A program made the position numbers. A stretch of 26,367 bases of DNA, taken from Gemmatimonadota bacterium (lineage in GTDB: Bacteria > Gemmatimonadota > Gemmatimonadetes > Longimicrobiales > RSA9). Numbering within the stretch: position 1 is the first letter of the stretch; each line of letters begins with the position of its first letter. Location of the stretch: the NCBI GenBank assembly GCA_040905425.1, contig JBBDRO010000046.1:4836-31202 (forward strand), in the 5' to 3' direction. Below, one piece after another: positions 6,001-12,000 of the stretch.

Positions 6001-9000
6001 GGCGCGCCGCCGCCCCCAGCGAATCCGCCCGCGCCGTGGCCAGCGCCGCGTCGGCGCGGAGCACCACCAGCCGCGCCGCGCTGCCCTCCGCCAGCAGCTG
6101 CCCGGCGCGCGCGCTCTCGGCCCGGATGGCCGCCATGCGCGCGCCCGCCGCCGCCACCACCTGGCGGGCCGCCGCCAGCGCGCCGTACTGGCGCACCACG
6201 CTCACCAACAGCGCCTGCCGCGCCCCGCGGAGCCCCTCGGCCGCGGCCTCCGCCAGCGCCCCGGCGCGCTCGCTCCGTGCGCCCCGGGCCCCGCCGTCCC
6301 ACGCCGTCCAGCTGAGCCCCACGTTGCCCTGCGTGAGCGTGCGCTCGAAGGCGGGCACGTTGGCGGGATCGAAGGCGTGCAGCGGCGCCACGATCATGGG
6401 CTCCTGGAAGTGCGTGAGCGCGCTCTCGAGCGCCACCTGCGGCAGGCGCGCCGCGGCGGCCTCCGCCACCCCGCTCTGCGCCCGCGCCTCGGCGGCGGAG
6501 GCCGCCGCTATGGACGGATGGCTGGCCAGGGCACGCCGTCCGGCCTCCGCCACGGTGAGGGGCGCGGACTGTGCCGCCGCGGGCCGGGACGCGCCTGGCG
6601 CCGTCGTGGCGGCGGGCGGCGCCGTGTCCTGCCCCGCGAGGGGCGCGGCCAGCGGGCCGGCACCTGCCGCTGCGGCGGCGGCCAGCACGCTTAGCGCCAG
6701 GGTCCCGAGCGCGTGCGTGTGTCTCATGTTCGCTCCTCCAGAGCGGCGCGGACAAAGGATGCCGCGTGATCGGCCAGGCCGCGGCGCGTCTCCGGCTCCT
6801 GGACGTCCACGCCGGTGAATGCCTGCAGCGGGCGCTGCACCAGGTTCAGGTGGATGGGCACGGACAGGATGCTGATCCCCATGAGGGCTGGATCCCCATC
6901 GCGGATGCTGCCCTCCATCTGCCCCTCCATGACCAGCCCCGTGAGCGCGCGGATCATGTCACCGAGCGGACCGCCCAGGGCCTGGGGCGGGCGGTCGGCC
7001 AGCAGCACACGCAGCATGAGACCCGGAATCCACGGATGGTCGTGCAACTGCTCGAAGTGGGTGCGCGCCACCTCACCCACGCGCTCCAGCGGCGGCGCGT
7101 CCCGGCCCACCACCCTCTTCACTGCCTCAACGAGAGGGCGGAGCGCACTGGTCACCACCGCGGCGTAGAGGCCCTCCTTGGAGCCGAAGTGGTAGGTGAT
7201 GGCGCCCAGGTTGGCGCCCGCGGCGGCGGTGATCTCGCGCACCGACACGCCGTCGTAGCCGCGCGCGCCGAAGCGGGGCGTGGCGGCGGCCACGAGCGCC
7301 AGGGCGGTTTCGTGCTCCGGCGCTGCCACCGCCTGCGGGCGGTCCGTGAACTCGGCCACGCGGGCACTGAACCAGCGATCTGATTGATTCATACGTTTGT
7401 ATGAATAGCATGGCGAGCGCTTTCCGTCAAGGACCATGGGCGCACCTGTTCCCGCCGCCGTGCTGTCGGGATCGACCCCACAGACTTTCCGCCCCTCCCT
7501 GACAGACCCTTCCCCTGTGCGCCGCCTAGCTTTCCGGCGGACCCACGGCGGACCCACGGTGGCCGGAAACGCAGGAGAGCCGATGACCGTTCCCACCCCC
7601 GCAGCGCCGCGCACCGAAGCGCCACCCGCCAACCTTGCTGCGCCCGCCGAGCGCGGGGCCCGCGCGCGCCTCCTGTCAGGCAACGAGGCCATTGCGCGCG
7701 GGGCGTGGCAGGCGGGGGTGGTGGTGGGCTGCGGGTACCCGGGCACACCCAGCACGGAGATCCTGGAGGCGCTGGCGGCGCTCCCCGACGTGGACTGCCA
7801 GTGGTCCCCCAACGAGAAGGTGGCGCTGGAGGTGGGGGTGGGCGCCTCGCTGGCGGGCGGCCGGGTGCTCGTCACCATGAAGCACGTGGGCCTGAACGTG
7901 GCGGCCGATCCCTTCTTCTCCGCCGCGTACATGGGCGTGAACGGCGGTCTGGTGGTGGTGAGCGCCGACGACCCGGGCATGCACTCCTCGCAGAACGAGC
8001 AGGACAACCGGCTCTTCGCGCGGGCCGCCCGGGTGCCGCTGCTCGAGCCCGCCACGCCCGCGGAGGCGCTCGACTACACCGCGGCCGCCTTCGCGCTCTC
8101 GGAGCGCTTCGATACGCCCGTCCTGCTGCGCACCACCTCGCGCCTCTCGCACGGCAAGGCGGCGGTGCCGCTCGCGCCGCGCCATGACCGGCTGCCCCGC
8201 CGTTACCGTAAGAACGCCACCAAGAACGTGGTGCTGCCGGCCCACGGCCGGGCGCGCCACCGCCTCATCGAGGAGCGGCGCATGCCCGGGCTGGTGCAGC
8301 AGGCCGAGCGCATGGCCCTGGTCCACGCCGGCACGGGGGACGTGGCGTTTATCACGGCCGGCGTACCCTACCTCTATGTGCGCGAGGCCTTCCCGGCCGC
8401 CGCCGTGCTGAAGCTGGGCATGACCCATCCGCTGCCCGTGGACGTGATCCGTCGCTTCGCGGCCGCCCACCCGCGCGTCCTGGTGGTGGAGGAGCTGGAG
8501 CCCATGCTGGACGAGCAGGTGCGCGCCCTGGGCATTGCCACGCTGCCGCGCACCTGGCCCCGCTACGGCGAGCTCAGTGTGGAGGCTCTCCATGCCGCCC
8601 TTTCAAGCGACGTCCCCGCGCCGGCCGCCGTGGCGCTGCCCGTCCTTCCCGTCCGGCCTCCCGTCCTCTGCCCGGGGTGCTCGCATCGCGGCGCCTTCCA
8701 CGCGCTGAGCCGCATGGACGCCATCGTTTCCGGGGACATCGGCTGCTACACCCTGGGAGCGGTTGCGCCCCTGGCCGCCATGGACGCGTGCATGAACATG
8801 GGCGCCTCCATCGGCATGGCCGCGGGCATGGCCATGGTGCTTCCCGAAGCCGACCGCGCACGGGTGGTGGCCGTCATCGGGGACTCCACCTTCTACCACT
8901 CCGGTATCACGGGGCTGGTGGACGTGGTCTACAACGGCGGCGCGGCCACCGTGCTGGTGCTGGACAACCACACCACGGCCATGACCGGCCACCAGGACCA

Positions 9001-12000
9001 TCCCGGCACCGGCCGGCGGCTGAACCAGGAGCCCGCGGGAACGGTGAGCATCGAGGGGGTGGTGCGGGGACTGGGCGTGGCGGATGTCCGCCGCCTGGAC
9101 CCCTACGACCTCATGGCCGCGTGGCGCACGCTGGACGGGGCCGCGGCCACCGACGCGCCCACGGTACTCCTGGCCGAGGCGCCGTGCGTGCTGAAGGAGC
9201 GTGTGGTCTTCGGGGAGCCTGTCATCCTGGACGCCGACGCCTGCACCGACTGCCACGCGTGCGCGGCACTCGGCTGCCCCGCCATCCAGGAGGTGGACGG
9301 CCGGCTGGCCGTGGACCCCCTCCAGTGCACCGCCTGCACGCACTGCCAGCAGGTGTGCGCCGACTGCAACGCCGGCATCGACATCCCGCTGGTGCTGGAG
9401 CTGGTGGCCCGCGACCGCCTCGAGGAGGCCTATCACACGCTGGTGCGCGCCAACCCCTTCCCCGCCGTGGCGGGGCGGGTCTGCCCGCACCCGTGCGACC
9501 ACGCCGTGAATGCCCTGGGCTTCGACCAGCACACCCGCTGGGCGGCCAGCTACCCCGAGCTGCTGGCGCGCTTTCCGGACGCTGCCCACGACGGGCAGAT
9601 CTCCATCCGCCATGTGGAGCGCTGGCTGGGCGACTGGGGTCTGGAACACGTCCCGGGCCGGGCCTTCCAGCCCGCCGAGGAGCGCGGCCAGCGCGTGGCG
9701 GTGGTGGGCGCCGGCCCGGCCGGTCTGGCGGCCGCCTGGCACCTGCGGCGCGGCGGCTTCCGCGTCACGGTCTTCGAGGCCGGGGACGCGCCCGGCGGCA
9801 TGCTGCGCCACGGCATTCCTTCCTTCCGCCTGCCACGCTGGGTGGTGGACGGCGAAGTGCACCGCCTGGAGGAGATGGGCGTCCGCTTCCGCTGCGGGAT
9901 CCGGGTGGGGCGCGACTTCCCCTTCGAGGAGATTCTGGAGGCCCACGAGGCGATCATCGTGGCCACCGGCGCGGGCGCGCCGCGGGAGGCGGGCATCGAT
10001 GGCGCCGAGGAGGCGCTCGGCGTCTGGGACGGTGTGGACTTCCTGGCGCGCTTCAACCGGGGGGACCCGCCTCCGGTGGGGGGACGGGTGGCGGTGGTGG
10101 GTGGCGGGAACACCGCAGTGGACTGCGCCCGCGCCGCGCGGCGGGCGGGCGCTCAGGTGAGCGTGGTGTACCGGCGCGGTGAGGCGGAGATGCCGGCCAT
10201 TCCGGACGAGGTGGACGAGGCGCGGGACGAGGGTGTGGAATTCCACTTCCACGAGCTGCCCAGGCGCGTGGTCACCGACGCCCGCGGCGGCCTCGTGGGC
10301 GTGGAACTGGTGCGCATGGCGGCGGGCGCGCCCGATGCCAGCGGCCGCGCCGCGCCGGTCGAAGTGGTGGGCAGCGAGCGCACCGTGCCCTATGACACGG
10401 TCATCCTGGCCATCGGCGAGCGCCCCGACCTGGCCTTCCTGGGTGGCGTGGACATCCGCACGAACGGCCGGGTGGAGGTGCGCTTCACCGGCGCCACCAG
10501 CCGCGAGGGCGTCTTTGCCTGCGGCGATGCGGCGTTCGGCCACGGCACTGTGACCCAGGCCATTGCCACGGGCCGGCGCGTGGCCGAGGCGGCCACGAGC
10601 TGGCTGGCGGGGAGGGCGCGGTGAGCGCTCCGGCCGCCGTCGGCGCCCGCACCGTGAATCTGGTGCTGGCCGGGGTGGGTGGGCAGGGCTCCGTGCTGGC
10701 CACCCAGATCGTGGGCCAGGCCGCCGTGCTGGCGGGCCACCAGGTGGTGACCTCGGAGGTGCACGGCATGTCCCAACGGGGCGGTACGGTAGTCACGGCG
10801 GTACGCTACGGCGCCGACCCCGGCGCGCCCACCGTGCCCCGCGGGGAGGCGGACTACCTCGTGGCATTCGAGCGGCTGGAGGGCCTCCGCTTCCTGCCCT
10901 GGCTCCGGCCGGGCGGCACCGTGGTGCTGAACAACCAGGCCATCCGCCCCACCGTGGAGTCCCTCAAGCTGACGGGCTATCCCACGGAGATCGAGGAGCG
11001 CCTCCGGGCGCACGCCGGCACCGTGCTGGTCACGCCGGCGCTGGCACTGGCCAGGGGCATCGGCAATCCCAGGCTGGTCAGCACGGCCGTCCTCGGCGCC
11101 CTCTCCGTGGTACTCGATCTGCCGCGTGAGGCCTGGGAGAAGGCCGTGGCGGGCGCGGTGCCACGACATACGGTGGAGGCCAACCTGGAAGCGTTCAAGG
11201 AGGGGGCACTTATGGCACGCTGGGTGACGTCATGAACATCTGCATTCCTACCGTGGACAACAGTGGCCTGAAGGCGCGGCTTTTTCCCCATTTCGGGAGC
11301 GCCCCGTTTTTCACGATCGTGCGGGCGGAGACGCTGGAGGCTCGATCGCTTGCCAACGAGCATGCCAGGCACGAGCACGGGGCCTGTCGACCCATGGCGG
11401 CCCTGGCGGGCCTGGACGTGGACGTGGTGCTCTGCCGCGGCCTGGGTGCGCGTGCCCTGGAGCGGCTGCGAAGCGGCGGAATCAGTGTCATGGTGGCCGA
11501 CGCCTGGCACGTGGACGAGGCGCTGCGCGCGCTGCGCAAGGGCAGGGCGCGGCCGCTGTTCACCGTGGACGCCTGCCAGGGCGGGCCTCACGAGCACTGA
11601 GGTCGGGCGCGCTCCCCGCTACTCCGCGGTGAGCGCCGGCTCGTAGCTGAGCGCCTCCTCTTCCCCGCGCACCACCCGCAGGGCGCCCTCCGCCAGCGCC
11701 CGTAGTTCGTCCTCCCCCGGATAGACGTGCACCGGCGCGATCCACGCCAGGCGCTCGCGCAGCTCCTCGGCCACGGCTGCGGCCTGTACCATGCCGCCCG
11801 TGAGCAAGACGGCGTGCACGCGACCGTCCAGCACGGCGGCCATGGCGCCCGCCTCCCGGCGCACCTGATAGAGCATGGCGTCCAGTACCAGGCGGGCCCG
11901 TCGGCTGCCCCGCTCGATGCGGCGCAGGACCTCGCGGACGTCCCGGGTGCCCATGTAGGAGAGCAGGCCGCCGCGGTGTGTGGCGCGCCGGTAGAGGTCG

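Follow-up and report, generated by a model that had tools for sequence, protein, structure and literature searches.

A 26,367-nt stretch of a Gemmatimonadota genome (hereafter the window) encodes a 1013-residue protein in which IorA, the alpha subunit of indolepyruvate:ferredoxin oxidoreductase, runs directly into a GltD-type flavoprotein. Together with IorB, this iorA-gltD fusion would constitute a 2-oxoacid:NADP+ oxidoreductase with a built-in acceptor that serves the benzoyl-CoA pathway, a reading in which we place middling confidence. The fusion is most likely a 2-oxoacid:NADP+ oxidoreductase, and it probably works in connection with the benzoyl-CoA pathway, by analogy with the 2-oxoglutarate oxidoreductase of Azoarcus evansii, which depends on NADP+.

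Gene structure and family assignment

The fusion gene (P0001), delimited by ORF, domain and homologue searches, spans positions 7583 to 10624 of the forward strand, with AGGAG 4 nt 5′ of its start. Its place in the genome is C46:12418-15456; the interval 7583-11235 is in window coordinates. A genome-wide search identified it as the sole IorA-type gene. The NCBIfam model IOR_alpha (TIGR03336) matches residues 29 to 593 over model positions 3 to 591 of 595, so that the complete IorA proposed in the genome-wide survey's note is indeed present; the score of 612 bits lies just under the equivalog cut-off of 651 bits. Pfam recognizes POR_N (residues 40-210), TPP_enzyme_C (385-528), Fer4_20 (583-639) and Pyr_redox_2 (704-997), and the GltD-type models PRK12771 (360 bits) and gltA (297 bits) match residues 581 to 1011. 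As the same note had stated, iorB follows (10621-11235, forward strand), encoding a 204-residue CoA-binding gamma-type subunit (PF01558, E 1e-41) that scores 188 bits against IOR_beta, under the equivalog cut-off of 237 bits. The stop of the fusion gene and the start of iorB overlap as GTGA, through which iorB is predicted to be translationally coupled to the fusion gene. The same gene order recurs in all three fusion loci.

The operon continues with a small Nitro_FeMo-Co (NifX/NifB-C-like) domain protein (11232-11600, forward strand; PF02579, E 2e-18), whose gene overlaps the end of iorB as ATGA and is thereby coupled to it. Searches with tblastn found no counterpart in the genomes L011 and L090; only this genome's copy of the operon has it. 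Convergent with the operon, on the reverse strand, lie buk, encoding a butyrate-kinase-type acyl kinase (11619-12770; TIGR02707, 389 bits, over the cut-off), and a ptb-type phosphotransacylase gene (12715-13638; PF01515), on which the NCBIfam ptb models score under their cut-offs. Genes for ptb and buk adjoin the fusion in 3/3 loci of the window's architecture (type 1).

Upstream, a TetR-family regulator gene (6724-7340, reverse strand, start approximate; PF00440) diverges from the fusion gene; its TetR_N domain occupies residues 255 to 300 of a 443-residue maximal ORF (6724-8055). The only AT-rich patch between these two genes is occupied by a palindrome with 8-nt arms and a 4-nt spacer (7387-7406, no strand assigned), a candidate operator that was read directly from the sequence and went unreported by a repeat search at a minimum length of 10.

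Cofactor motifs and the domain junction

The IorA catalytic core (residues 27-535; 7661-9187, forward strand) comprises POR_N and a TPP-binding domain by Pfam and NCBIfam. In an AlphaFold2 model of the whole chain (pLDDT 88.2, pTM 0.82) its fold matches OGOR (6n2n_A, Z 33.4). The TPP motif GDS...N is conserved among 99 fused homologues (D434 in 99/99, N462 in 98/99), and cysteines 363, 366, 388 and 535, putative ligands of a TPP-proximal [4Fe-4S] cluster, are invariant in these as well as in 9/9 short homologues. A ferredoxin-like domain follows (residues 547-595; 9221-9367, forward strand), whose eight cysteines (554, 557, 560, 565, 582, 585, 588 and 592) may hold two [4Fe-4S] clusters.

At this point the two halves interlock. 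The end of the IOR model (593) overlaps the starts of the GltD models (581-583), and Cys595, the putative first ligand of the flavoprotein's cluster, comes right after the ferredoxin-domain cysteines. By alignment to NfnB and DPD, the GltD-type helical Fe-S domain (residues 596-700; 9368-9682, forward strand) would contribute Cys634, Cys638 and, as putative fourth ligand, Glu679, which is kept in 98/99 fused homologues. The third cysteine of the usual motif is missing (position 642 is Cys in 0/99), and a family-specific insert of ~28 residues occupies positions 643 to 670 (nt 9509-9592). All 15 cysteines (4 + 8 + 3) are invariant across the 99 fused members. The superposition of the C-terminal half on DPD begins at DPD residue 84 and places Cys592 and Cys595 at the positions of DPD Cys87 and Cys91, which we take to be cluster ligands under that numbering.

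The survey's note had described a SudA/NfnB/GltD-type C-terminal module. That description stands for residues 581 to 1011, for the FAD/NADPH motifs and for the fold; in its iron-sulfur part the module falls short of a complete SudA/GltD one, because ligands for one of two clusters are missing. Judged from the alignment, it retains ligands for the flavin-proximal [4Fe-4S] cluster only, which marks the junction as a predicted splice rather than a plain end-to-end joining; IorA's own ferredoxin cluster appears to substitute for the missing one.

Two dinucleotide-binding domains, for FAD and NADPH (residues 704-997; 9692-10573, forward strand; PF07992), carry the FAD motif GxGxxG (709-714) together with GGGN (840-843) and Y-R-R (863-865). 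GxGxxG and GGGN are conserved in the 99-member family, as is the TPP motif, and Y-R-R is found in 98/99; in an alignment with the NADPH-binding Thermotoga maritima NfnB (4ylf_B), the stretch Y-R-R...EMPA falls on the strand of the NADPH site. The C-terminal half superposes on NADP(H)-bound NfnI-L (5jca_L) with Z 42.6 and an rmsd of 2.0 Å over 401 residues. The closest solved structures of this half are electron-bifurcating enzymes, which counts against the reading favored here.

Family distribution and a second architecture

Among the best 120 homologues listed, 97 are 985 to 1064 residues long, and their source names are just "IorA" or "FAD-dependent oxidoreductase"; the survey's account of a ~1000-residue fusion hidden under these labels is thus borne out in that set. 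Its statement that the fusion is common in Gemmatimonadota is overstated: of the 301 species genomes sampled from the phylum, 2 contain it at full length. A second, more diverse architecture (type 2) has the order IorA core, GltD, ferredoxin, measures ~1100-1190 residues, and accounts for 33 of the best 150 representatives at 50% identity, compared with one or two for the window's type. The two types share the same three building blocks, a following iorB (3/3 type-2 loci) and the same two database names; they are only 37-45% identical, and type 2 differs in placing the ferredoxin domain after the flavoprotein, in a complete GltD Fe-S domain and in a variable nucleotide-site motif. A literature search found no paper on an IorA-GltD fusion.

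The genome has three Fer4_20/GltD-like genes, and each is attached to a 2-oxoacid oxidoreductase. On contig C96, where an unfused pair of the same kinds of genes had been noted, such an operon is present, but it is not of the same kind: its three genes encode a KorA-like gamma-alpha subunit, a beta subunit and a GltD-like protein with its own C-terminal ferredoxin domain. A quick tree places the fusion's GltD module among the GltD-delta subunits that accompany oxidoreductases.

Association with benzoyl-CoA genes

Positions 13724 to 24679 hold a co-directional benzoyl-CoA degradation cluster on the reverse strand (HMGL-like synthase, TPR, BcrD, BcrA, BcrB, BcrC, Dch, SDR, Oah, Had, TetR). In a sister family, all four loci compared show TetR-Had-Oah-SDR-BcrCBAD-HMGL terminating in plain iorA-iorB; identity to the window's pathway genes is 65-86%, except for SDR (51-53%), compared with just 43-44% for IorA. 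Where related genomes close this cluster for anaerobic benzoate degradation with plain iorAB, the window has the fusion operon, which therefore most likely serves that pathway. A split form is seen in genome G075, with GltD-like, buk, iorA, iorB and ptb genes in one row beside TetR-Had-Oah. Across the phylum sample, Oah and IorA-type genes tend to occur together (14 of 22 genomes compared with 9 of 279), and in eight genomes the two lie 3 to 12 kb apart on one contig. The link is not universal for the fusion, because in one of the three genomes with it, G167 (95% complete), the queries used found no BcrC or Oah, and L011 carries its benzoyl-CoA genes on a different contig from the fusion.

Discussion

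In the proposed reaction, a 2-oxoacid would lose CO2 on TPP and pass its acyl group to CoA. Two electrons would travel from the TPP-proximal [4Fe-4S] cluster through the two clusters of the IorA ferredoxin domain and one GltD-type cluster to FAD, which would reduce NADP+ and make free ferredoxin unnecessary (net: 2-oxoacid + CoA + NADP+ -> acyl-CoA + CO2 + NADPH). Ptb and Buk could then convert the acyl-CoA to acid and ATP. The survey's note had proposed that electrons pass directly from arylpyruvate to NADP+ without free ferredoxin. The cofactor motifs of such an internal wire from TPP to NADP(H) are all present, family-wide, and the C-terminal half superposes on NfnI-L; arylpyruvate itself comes from the family names, and since both IOR models score under their equivalog cut-offs, that substrate assignment is weak.

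The fusion shares with IorAB of the Pyrococcus furiosus type (TIGR03336/TIGR03334) the POR_N and TPP domains, the four-Cys proximal cluster, the 2x[4Fe-4S] ferredoxin domain and a separate IorB. It differs in ~420 additional C-terminal residues predicted to bind FAD and NADPH, in a predicted acceptor that is NADP+ rather than free ferredoxin, and in IOR scores just below the equivalog cut-offs. Over the IorA part it is 50-57% identical to the closest unfused relatives. NfnB/SudA (4ylf_B, 5jca_L), the beta subunit of GltS and the N-terminal half of DPD resemble the C-terminal half in fold (Z 36-43, rmsd 1.8-3.1 Å, ~400 residues), in FAD/NADPH motifs and in flavin-proximal cluster ligands; unlike them, the fusion lacks three Cys of the distal-cluster motifs, namely the first two and the last, and carries the 28-residue insert. 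Their partners were not found: the genome (96.7% complete) gave 0 matches to PF10418 for NfnA/PyrK and one 21-bit fragment, no real GltB, for PF01645, and no DHODH-type partner for the module was detected.

A functional parallel may be the 2-oxoglutarate:NADP+ oxidoreductase (KGOR) of A. evansii, reportedly the subject of work by Ebenau-Jehle, Boll and Fuchs in 2003. Passages of PMC10134865 place the alpha subunit of this NADP+-reducing enzyme among GltD-like proteins, and passages of PMC8163825 link it to ferredoxin regeneration for benzoyl-CoA reductase. Compared by these partial descriptions, KGOR has a separate flavoprotein subunit and a KorAB-type core, the build of the C96 operon, whereas in the window the flavoprotein is fused behind IorA and one cluster's ligands are lost. 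Pyruvate:NADP+ oxidoreductase (PNO), known from Euglena, Cryptosporidium and anaerobic ciliates, is, as a passage of PMC6993867 describes it, likewise a 2-oxoacid:ferredoxin oxidoreductase (PFOR) covalently fused to an NADP+-reducing flavoprotein; its PFOR core is a single chain and its flavoprotein belongs to the NADPH-cytochrome-P450-reductase type, and the two fusions are unrelated and of independent origin.

The fusion might instead be an arylpyruvate:NADP+ oxidoreductase of amino-acid fermentation, in which transamination, the fusion and Ptb-Buk yield arylacetate and ATP and the benzoyl-CoA neighborhood is incidental. The IOR models are its best family matches, ptb-buk is kept throughout, an S9 peptidase gene lies directly upstream of the L011 locus, and G167 combines an amino-acid permease on the fusion's contig with the undetected BcrC and Oah. 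Against these points stand the sub-cut-off scores, three fusion loci in which no aminotransferase was seen, the co-occurrence with Oah and the exact position of the operon in the iorAB slot. We consider this reading unlikely, if still deserving of some weight.

A point against our favored reading is that class I benzoyl-CoA reductase requires an electron donor of much more negative potential than NADPH, so that an NADP+-reducing fusion alone does not explain its electron supply. In another proposal, the fusion would deliver low-potential electrons mainly to ferredoxin or directly to the reductase, with the flavin as an NADPH side door that feeds or drains the Fe-S chain, merging what Azoarcus is said to do via KGOR and an NADPH:ferredoxin oxidoreductase. 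The slot at the end of the conserved cluster fits this proposal, as does the fusion being the only oxidoreductase in or beside the cluster in the window. In the Planctomycetaceae genome L081, bcrCBAD runs straight into a gamma/GltD-delta/alpha/beta oxidoreductase whose GltD-delta is the nearest non-fused neighbor of the fusion's module (support 87, quick tree). Partial accounts of Thauera and Azoarcus offer precedents, and a motif scan of the whole genome gave one small ferredoxin-like ORF only. We nevertheless find the proposal doubtful: attached behind the ferredoxin domain, the flavoprotein would be expected to hide rather than expose the cluster at which ferredoxin usually docks, no ferredoxin gene was found in the window, and the fusion is also present at loci that lack benzoyl-CoA genes nearby.

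That the flavin bifurcates or confurcates as in Nfn, coupling 2-oxoacid, NADP(H) and a putative third partner, seems distinctly improbable, even though the best structural matches of the C-terminal half are bifurcating subunits of NfnI, NfnAB, NfnABC and StnABC (Z 40-43); GltS and DPD share the fold without bifurcating, according to passages in a review (PMC8097209). Moreover, both electrons would arrive already at low potential, the genome search turned up no partner of the NfnA/PyrK type, and a domain search revealed no further redox domain in the chain or operon. Operation in reverse, with Buk and Ptb activating an aryl or other acid for NADPH-driven reductive carboxylation of the acyl-CoA to a 2-oxoacid for amino-acid synthesis, has a precedent in the IOR-dependent aryl-acid assimilation of methanogens and gut anaerobes and could draw on the reversibility of Ptb-Buk, but is very improbable, as NADPH (~-320 mV) is too positive by ~180 mV to drive 2-oxoacid synthesis (~-500 mV) without some further coupling, for which the NfnA/PyrK search found no partner.

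We therefore favor a 2-oxoacid:NADP+ oxidoreductase that would serve the benzoyl-CoA pathway. An enzyme that normally passes the electrons of 2-oxoacids to free ferredoxin is here covalently joined to an NADP-binding flavoprotein.

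The fused gene and its partner

The genome-wide survey's note had described an indolepyruvate:ferredoxin oxidoreductase alpha subunit (IorA) fused to a GltD/NfnB-type flavoprotein and followed by iorB at 7583–11235. These figures are already window coordinates, and the fusion is real: one ORF of 1013 aa occupies 7583–10624 (+), with AGGAG 4 nt before its start, and domain models match both halves. The NCBIfam equivalog model IOR_alpha (TIGR03336) spans residues 29–593 (model positions 3–591 of 595), and residues 581–1011 are matched by GltD-type models, foremost PRK12771 ("NAD(P)-binding protein," 360 bits). 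By profile search, the Pfam domains are POR_N, TPP_enzyme_C, Fer4_20 (583–639), and Pyr_redox_2 (704–997). The TIGR03336 score of 612.4 bits lies below the 650.9-bit cut-off; judged by sequence, the protein is a family-level relative of the IOR alpha subunit, not a certified equivalog. The adjacent iorB (10621–11235 (+); PF01558, E 1e-41) overlaps the stop codon of the fusion at a GTGA, and its best IOR-beta model reaches 188 bits against a cut-off of 237 bits. No promoters or terminators were detected in a scan of 7250–11800.

Among the best 120 homologues, 97 are 985–1064 aa long; they are drawn from Longimicrobiales, Gemmatimonadota, and Bipolaricaulota/Acetothermia bins, and their names go no further than "IorA" or "FAD-dependent oxidoreductase." An artefact or mis-assembly of two genes was ruled out, as the same junction recurs in 99 sequences and in two other genomes, from the phylum sample and the collection.

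Several other features flank the operon. A 122-aa protein with a Nitro_FeMo-Co (NifX/NifB-C-like) domain, encoded at 11232–11600 (+) with an ATGA overlap with iorB, may be an Fe–S or cofactor carrier; its gene is missing from two other loci of the same fusion type. Between the fusion gene and a divergent TetR gene, a perfect palindrome with 8-nt arms and a 4-nt spacer (7387–7406), set in a locally AT-rich stretch (the genome has ~73% G+C), is a candidate operator. Upstream of the TetR gene, 344–6727 (−) encodes an efflux system comprising an outer-membrane factor, an HlyD-type adaptor, two ABC ATPases, and two ABC-2 permeases.

The junction and its iron–sulfur clusters

We aligned the fusion with 98 matches, giving a family of 99 members of 960–1070 aa in which 15 Cys are invariant (99/99). 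Four belong to the TPP-proximal cluster (363, 366, 388, 535), eight form two classical ferredoxin motifs (554, 557, 560, 565, 582, 585, 588, 592; also present in 9/9 short homologues), and three more lie at 595, 634, and 638. The TPP-binding motif is likewise conserved (D434 and S435 in 99/99, N462 in 98/99), and the IOR alpha set of TPP motif, four-Cys proximal cluster, and eight-Cys ferredoxin domain is present in full.

With the GltD models starting at 581–583 and the IorA model running to 593, the two modules overlap on one Cys motif. We take a GltD/NfnB-type module to carry two [4Fe-4S] clusters on its own two motifs (four Cys; three Cys plus Glu/Gln), a definition based on a GltD-module review (PMC8097209) and on the DPD and NfnB structures, in which the Glu/Gln is presumably the ligand completing the flavin-proximal cluster. 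The fusion departs from this arrangement: beyond the ferredoxin domain, only Cys595, Cys634, Cys638, and Glu679 are left, and Glu679, found in 98/99, aligns with that Glu/Gln. The GltD-module review, which describes Glu(Cys)3 ligation, supports the Glu/Gln ligand. The nearest relatives of the module, the GltD-like flavoproteins with a ferredoxin (delta) part (GltD-delta), have C-x3-C-x3-C after a conserved "RVC"; in the fusion family the motif is C-x3-C, the third Cys is always missing (position 642, 0/99), and there is a family-specific insert of ~28 aa. Superposition of the predicted model on DPD begins at DPD residue 84, so that Cys592 and Cys595 fall at DPD Cys87 and Cys91.

We infer from these positions that the chain holds four [4Fe-4S] clusters instead of five: a cluster of the IorA ferredoxin domain would have taken the place of the GltD module's distal one. 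The neighboring ligands 588, 592, and 595 would join three clusters into one wire ending at FAD. There, the FAD-binding GxGxxG and an NADPH-type GGGN...Y-R-R vary little or not at all, the Y-R-R following the second Rossmann strand in 98/99 and resembling, at the level of motifs, the NADPH site of Thermotoga maritima NfnB.

Predicted fold

The AlphaFold2 model of the whole chain (pLDDT 88.2, pTM 0.82) is confident as a whole. Its C-terminal half superimposes on NADP(H)-bound NfnI-L (5jca_L) with Z 42.6 and an rmsd of 2.0 Å over 401 residues, and on 4ylf_B with Z 41.1. A Foldseek comparison gave a TM of 0.77, normalized to the target. The model predicts an adrenodoxin-reductase-like FAD and NAD(P)H fold behind a helical Fe–S domain. 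The N-terminal half matches 2-oxoacid oxidoreductase alpha subunits with Z 31–33.

Two fusion architectures

When all 50%-identity representatives were searched, the build of the window's protein (type 1: IorA with its ferredoxin domain, then the GltD module) collapsed to essentially one representative. The best 150 representatives include 33 long proteins (980–1384 aa, mostly 1100–1190) that are 35–45% identical, and all 33 have a ferredoxin motif at the extreme C terminus and none ahead of the flavoprotein. This second arrangement (type 2) is more diverse and equally unannotated; one member, from G009, shows POR_N, TPP_C, a complete Fer4_20, Pyr_redox_2, and Fer4, followed by iorB. Among the 301 genomes sampled from the window's phylum, with only two IorA-type candidates scored per genome, full-length type 1 occurs in two (the window's own, G000, and G167) and type 2 in three (G003, G009, G012). 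A locus search of genome contigs returned mostly unfused IorA because its patterns were IorA-general; L011 was its sole type-1 locus.

In a tree of the IorA core, type 1 is nested among unfused IorAs and type 2 stands apart. Type 1 alone is compatible with one clade (p-AU 0.644); placing both types in one clade lowers lnL by 39.7, and the AU test does not reject it (p-AU 0.125). In a quick tree of the GltD module, with long branches flagged, type 1 groups with oxidoreductase-linked GltD-delta subunits, and a branch with 98% SH-aLRT parts this group from 9/10 type-2 modules. An independent origin of the two types is likely; because the AU test does not reject a single clade, it is suggested, not proven.

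The type-2 fusions of the phylum (L108 (G009:C15) 1132–4506, G003:C39, and G012:C70) are 1122–1134 aa long, each with iorB behind it. XdhC and MobA-like genes lie upstream in 2/3 of these loci, and hydantoinase A/B and acyl-CoA dehydrogenase genes downstream in 1/3.

A benzoyl-CoA pathway cluster beside the fusion

Three type-1 loci, those of the window, L011, and G167, have enough flanking sequence to show what lies beyond iorB; in each of them, butyrate-kinase-type (buk) and phosphotransacylase-type (ptb) genes follow it convergently, a neighborhood that fits conversion of acyl-CoA through acyl-phosphate to acid and ATP. Past ptb, the minus strand of the window encodes an HMGL-like synthase, a TPR protein, BcrD, BcrA, BcrB, BcrC, Dch, SDR, Oah, Had, and TetR, so that 13724–24679 (−) holds a complete-looking cluster for the anaerobic benzoyl-CoA pathway with all four benzoyl-CoA reductase (Bcr) subunits. 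Oah (553 bits) and Had (460 bits) exceed their NCBIfam equivalog cut-offs; the Bcr subunits, which are divergent, have their best matches among Thauera-type models, under cut-off. Divergent from the cluster's TetR gene, a 362-aa ORF (24798–25886 (+)) carries a C-x2-C-x2-C-x3-C motif and has no Pfam or NCBIfam match.

At least four further genomes of the phylum have the same collinear cluster. In a sister family, the co-directional row TetR-Had-Oah-SDR-...-BcrCBAD-...-HMGL ends in a plain iorA-iorB in each of the four fetched loci (G232, G059, G176, G063). Their pathway genes are 65–86% identical to those of the window, except SDR (51–53%), and their IorA is only 43–44% identical; the window has no other IorA-type gene. 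The type-1 operon with ptb–buk thus stands in the slot of the ordinary iorAB. An intermediate is found in genome G075, where a separate full GltD-like gene, buk, iorA (53% identical), iorB, and ptb lie directly beside TetR-Had-Oah. This split form forms one row at 3485–9661 (−) of locus L123 (G075:C5), and citrate-lyase genes (CitF, HpcH+ACP) and an isocitrate/isopropylmalate dehydrogenase (Iso_dh) gene lie upstream of it.

Oah exceeds its cut-off in 23/301 sampled genomes of the phylum, namely 14/22 with an IorA-type match versus 9/279 others, in tallies over related genomes that score two candidates per genome and count the unpublished genomes G097, G157, G057, and G182 as negatives. Not every genome with the fusion shows the link: a genomic association with benzoyl-CoA reductase, taken as a mark of enzymes of the type of the Azoarcus evansii 2-oxoglutarate oxidoreductase (KGOR), was found for the window's genome and not for G167, where the queries used detected neither BcrC nor Oah, and the genome of L011 has its benzoyl-CoA genes on another contig. 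In an unrelated Planctomycetaceae MAG (L081), bcrCBAD runs directly into genes for a gamma / GltD-delta / alpha / beta oxidoreductase. A flavoprotein-bearing oxidoreductase there seems to be part of a benzoyl-CoA-reductase operon, in a phylum other than the window's. The co-directional row at L081 2245–12786 reads Dch-like, Had-like, BcrC, BcrB, BcrA, BcrD, POR-gamma, GltD-delta, POR-alpha, POR-beta.

The HMGL-like synthase gene (13724–15073 (−) in the window; compare 12595–13971 and 11503–12582 in locus L122) always adjoins iorA in these clusters. Between genomes its product shows 73–77% identity; for the copy in an Acidimicrobiia MAG (L076) the figure is 53%. The product scores best on isopropylmalate/homocitrate synthase models, under all cut-offs, and would belong to the isopropylmalate / homocitrate / possibly Re-citrate-synthase family. 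In G232 the gene forms a pair with an Iso_dh gene, and the G075 locus contains a partial Iso_dh match.

Other 2-oxoacid oxidoreductases of the genome

Exactly three Fer4_20 matches in the genome exceed the cut-off, each in a 2-oxoacid oxidoreductase. One lies in the fusion, one in an operon of the order gamma / GltD-delta / alpha / beta on contig C67, and one in an operon on contig C96 that reads GltD-delta / gamma-alpha / beta. Two more oxidoreductases, without flavoprotein, lie beside rnf genes on contig C17. A crude motif scan for small ferredoxins, which may miss some, gave one plausible ORF.

In the operons at C67:14413–18788 (L008 3413–7788) and C96:9863–14594 (L009 2864–7594), the delta (ferredoxin) subunit is fused behind the GltD-like flavoprotein. 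The C67 GltD-delta protein passes PRK12771 (531 bits, cut-off 516), and the C96 trio (610, 614, and 351 aa) resembles the A. evansii KGOR, which reportedly has three subunits. At C17:41587–46692 (L010 6588–11693), a single-chain PFOR of 1701 aa, extended at its C terminus by an additional ferredoxin domain, is encoded between an RnfB-like gene and rnfC/D/G, beside a two-subunit oxidoreductase.

Proposed reaction

We propose, as the simplest interpretation, that the fusion and IorB form a self-contained 2-oxoacid:NADP+ oxidoreductase linked to the neighboring pathway, a proposal to which we give an even chance. The cluster context would fit, as a substrate, a 2-oxoacid that feeds ring reduction. 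Going by the title of Li et al. 2007, Re-citrate synthases belong to the isopropylmalate/homocitrate synthase family; taken with the best matches of the HMGL-like synthase and its Iso_dh pairing, this makes a local route to 2-oxoglutarate conceivable, as a speculation. Thauera feeds ring reduction by a 2-oxoglutarate:ferredoxin oxidoreductase (PMC2984482); the corresponding enzyme of A. evansii depends on NADP+ and has a GltD-like alpha subunit (PMC10134865, PMC8163825).

One alternative is electron supply to benzoyl-CoA reductase through the cluster chain. In the boldest reading, which we regard as unlikely, an IOR-type enzyme would supply the ATP-dependent benzoyl-CoA reductase in this lineage and the fusion would be a three-way junction of 2-oxoacid site, ferredoxin-type cluster chain, and NADP(H) flavin, sharing one iron–sulfur cluster between formerly separate modules, with three of the genome's five 2-oxoacid oxidoreductases hard-wired to pyridine nucleotides, not free ferredoxin. 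If so, one protein would do what Azoarcus is thought to need two for (KGOR and an NADPH:ferredoxin oxidoreductase). Strict arylpyruvate fermentation is another alternative; family names suggest an arylpyruvate substrate, but the scores lie under the equivalog cut-offs, and the cluster context would suit a ring-reduction substrate equally. Reductive carboxylation, with the enzyme in reverse, is less probable, since 2-oxoacid oxidation with NADP+ is exergonic by ~180 mV per electron pair on established redox values and the oxidative direction is therefore favored.

Electron bifurcation by the fusion enzyme is likewise improbable: in the 96.7% complete genome, searches for an NfnA/PyrK-type, GltB, or DHODH-domain partner gave no match to PF10418 and no real GltB, PF01645 yielding one 21-bit fragment of 70 positions. 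IorA itself is the partner of the GltD module here, in the proposed 2-oxoacid:NADP+ oxidoreductase.

Relation to known enzymes and significance

The logic of such an enzyme is already known. Phenylglyoxylate:NAD+ oxidoreductase is one example, and KGOR of A. evansii combines an oxidoreductase core with a GltD-like flavoprotein in one enzyme, an arrangement reached here by covalent fusion; eukaryotic PNO follows the same logic (PMC6993867). We found no paper on an IorA–GltD fusion in the literature searched, whose scope lay outside subscription journals and supplements. In their accessible parts, the GltD-module review PMC8097209 names GltS, DPD, Nfn, and AegA only, and a 2026 PFOR review (PMC13768988) mentions no such fusion. 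Relative to the literature searched, the IorA–GltD splice with its proposed shared cluster, the second architecture, and the place in a Gemmatimonadota benzoyl-CoA cluster are new; the fusion is real, conserved, and uncharacterized.

In anaerobes, the 2-oxoacid:ferredoxin oxidoreductases are the points at which carbon flux meets low-potential electrons, and genome-based models take every "IorA" as a maker of reduced ferredoxin. The mislabeled family is sizeable, with at least 97 type-1 sequence clusters and the more diverse type 2, and its members probably make NADPH instead, which would alter the predicted energy yields and redox balances of Gemmatimonadota, Bipolaricaulota, and others. The junction is a natural splice of two redox modules in which one cluster would replace another, and may be of use in designing self-contained, ferredoxin-independent decarboxylases or carboxylases. 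The synteny with benzoyl-CoA reductase offers a testable handle on the electron supply of ATP-dependent ring reduction beyond a few model proteobacteria.
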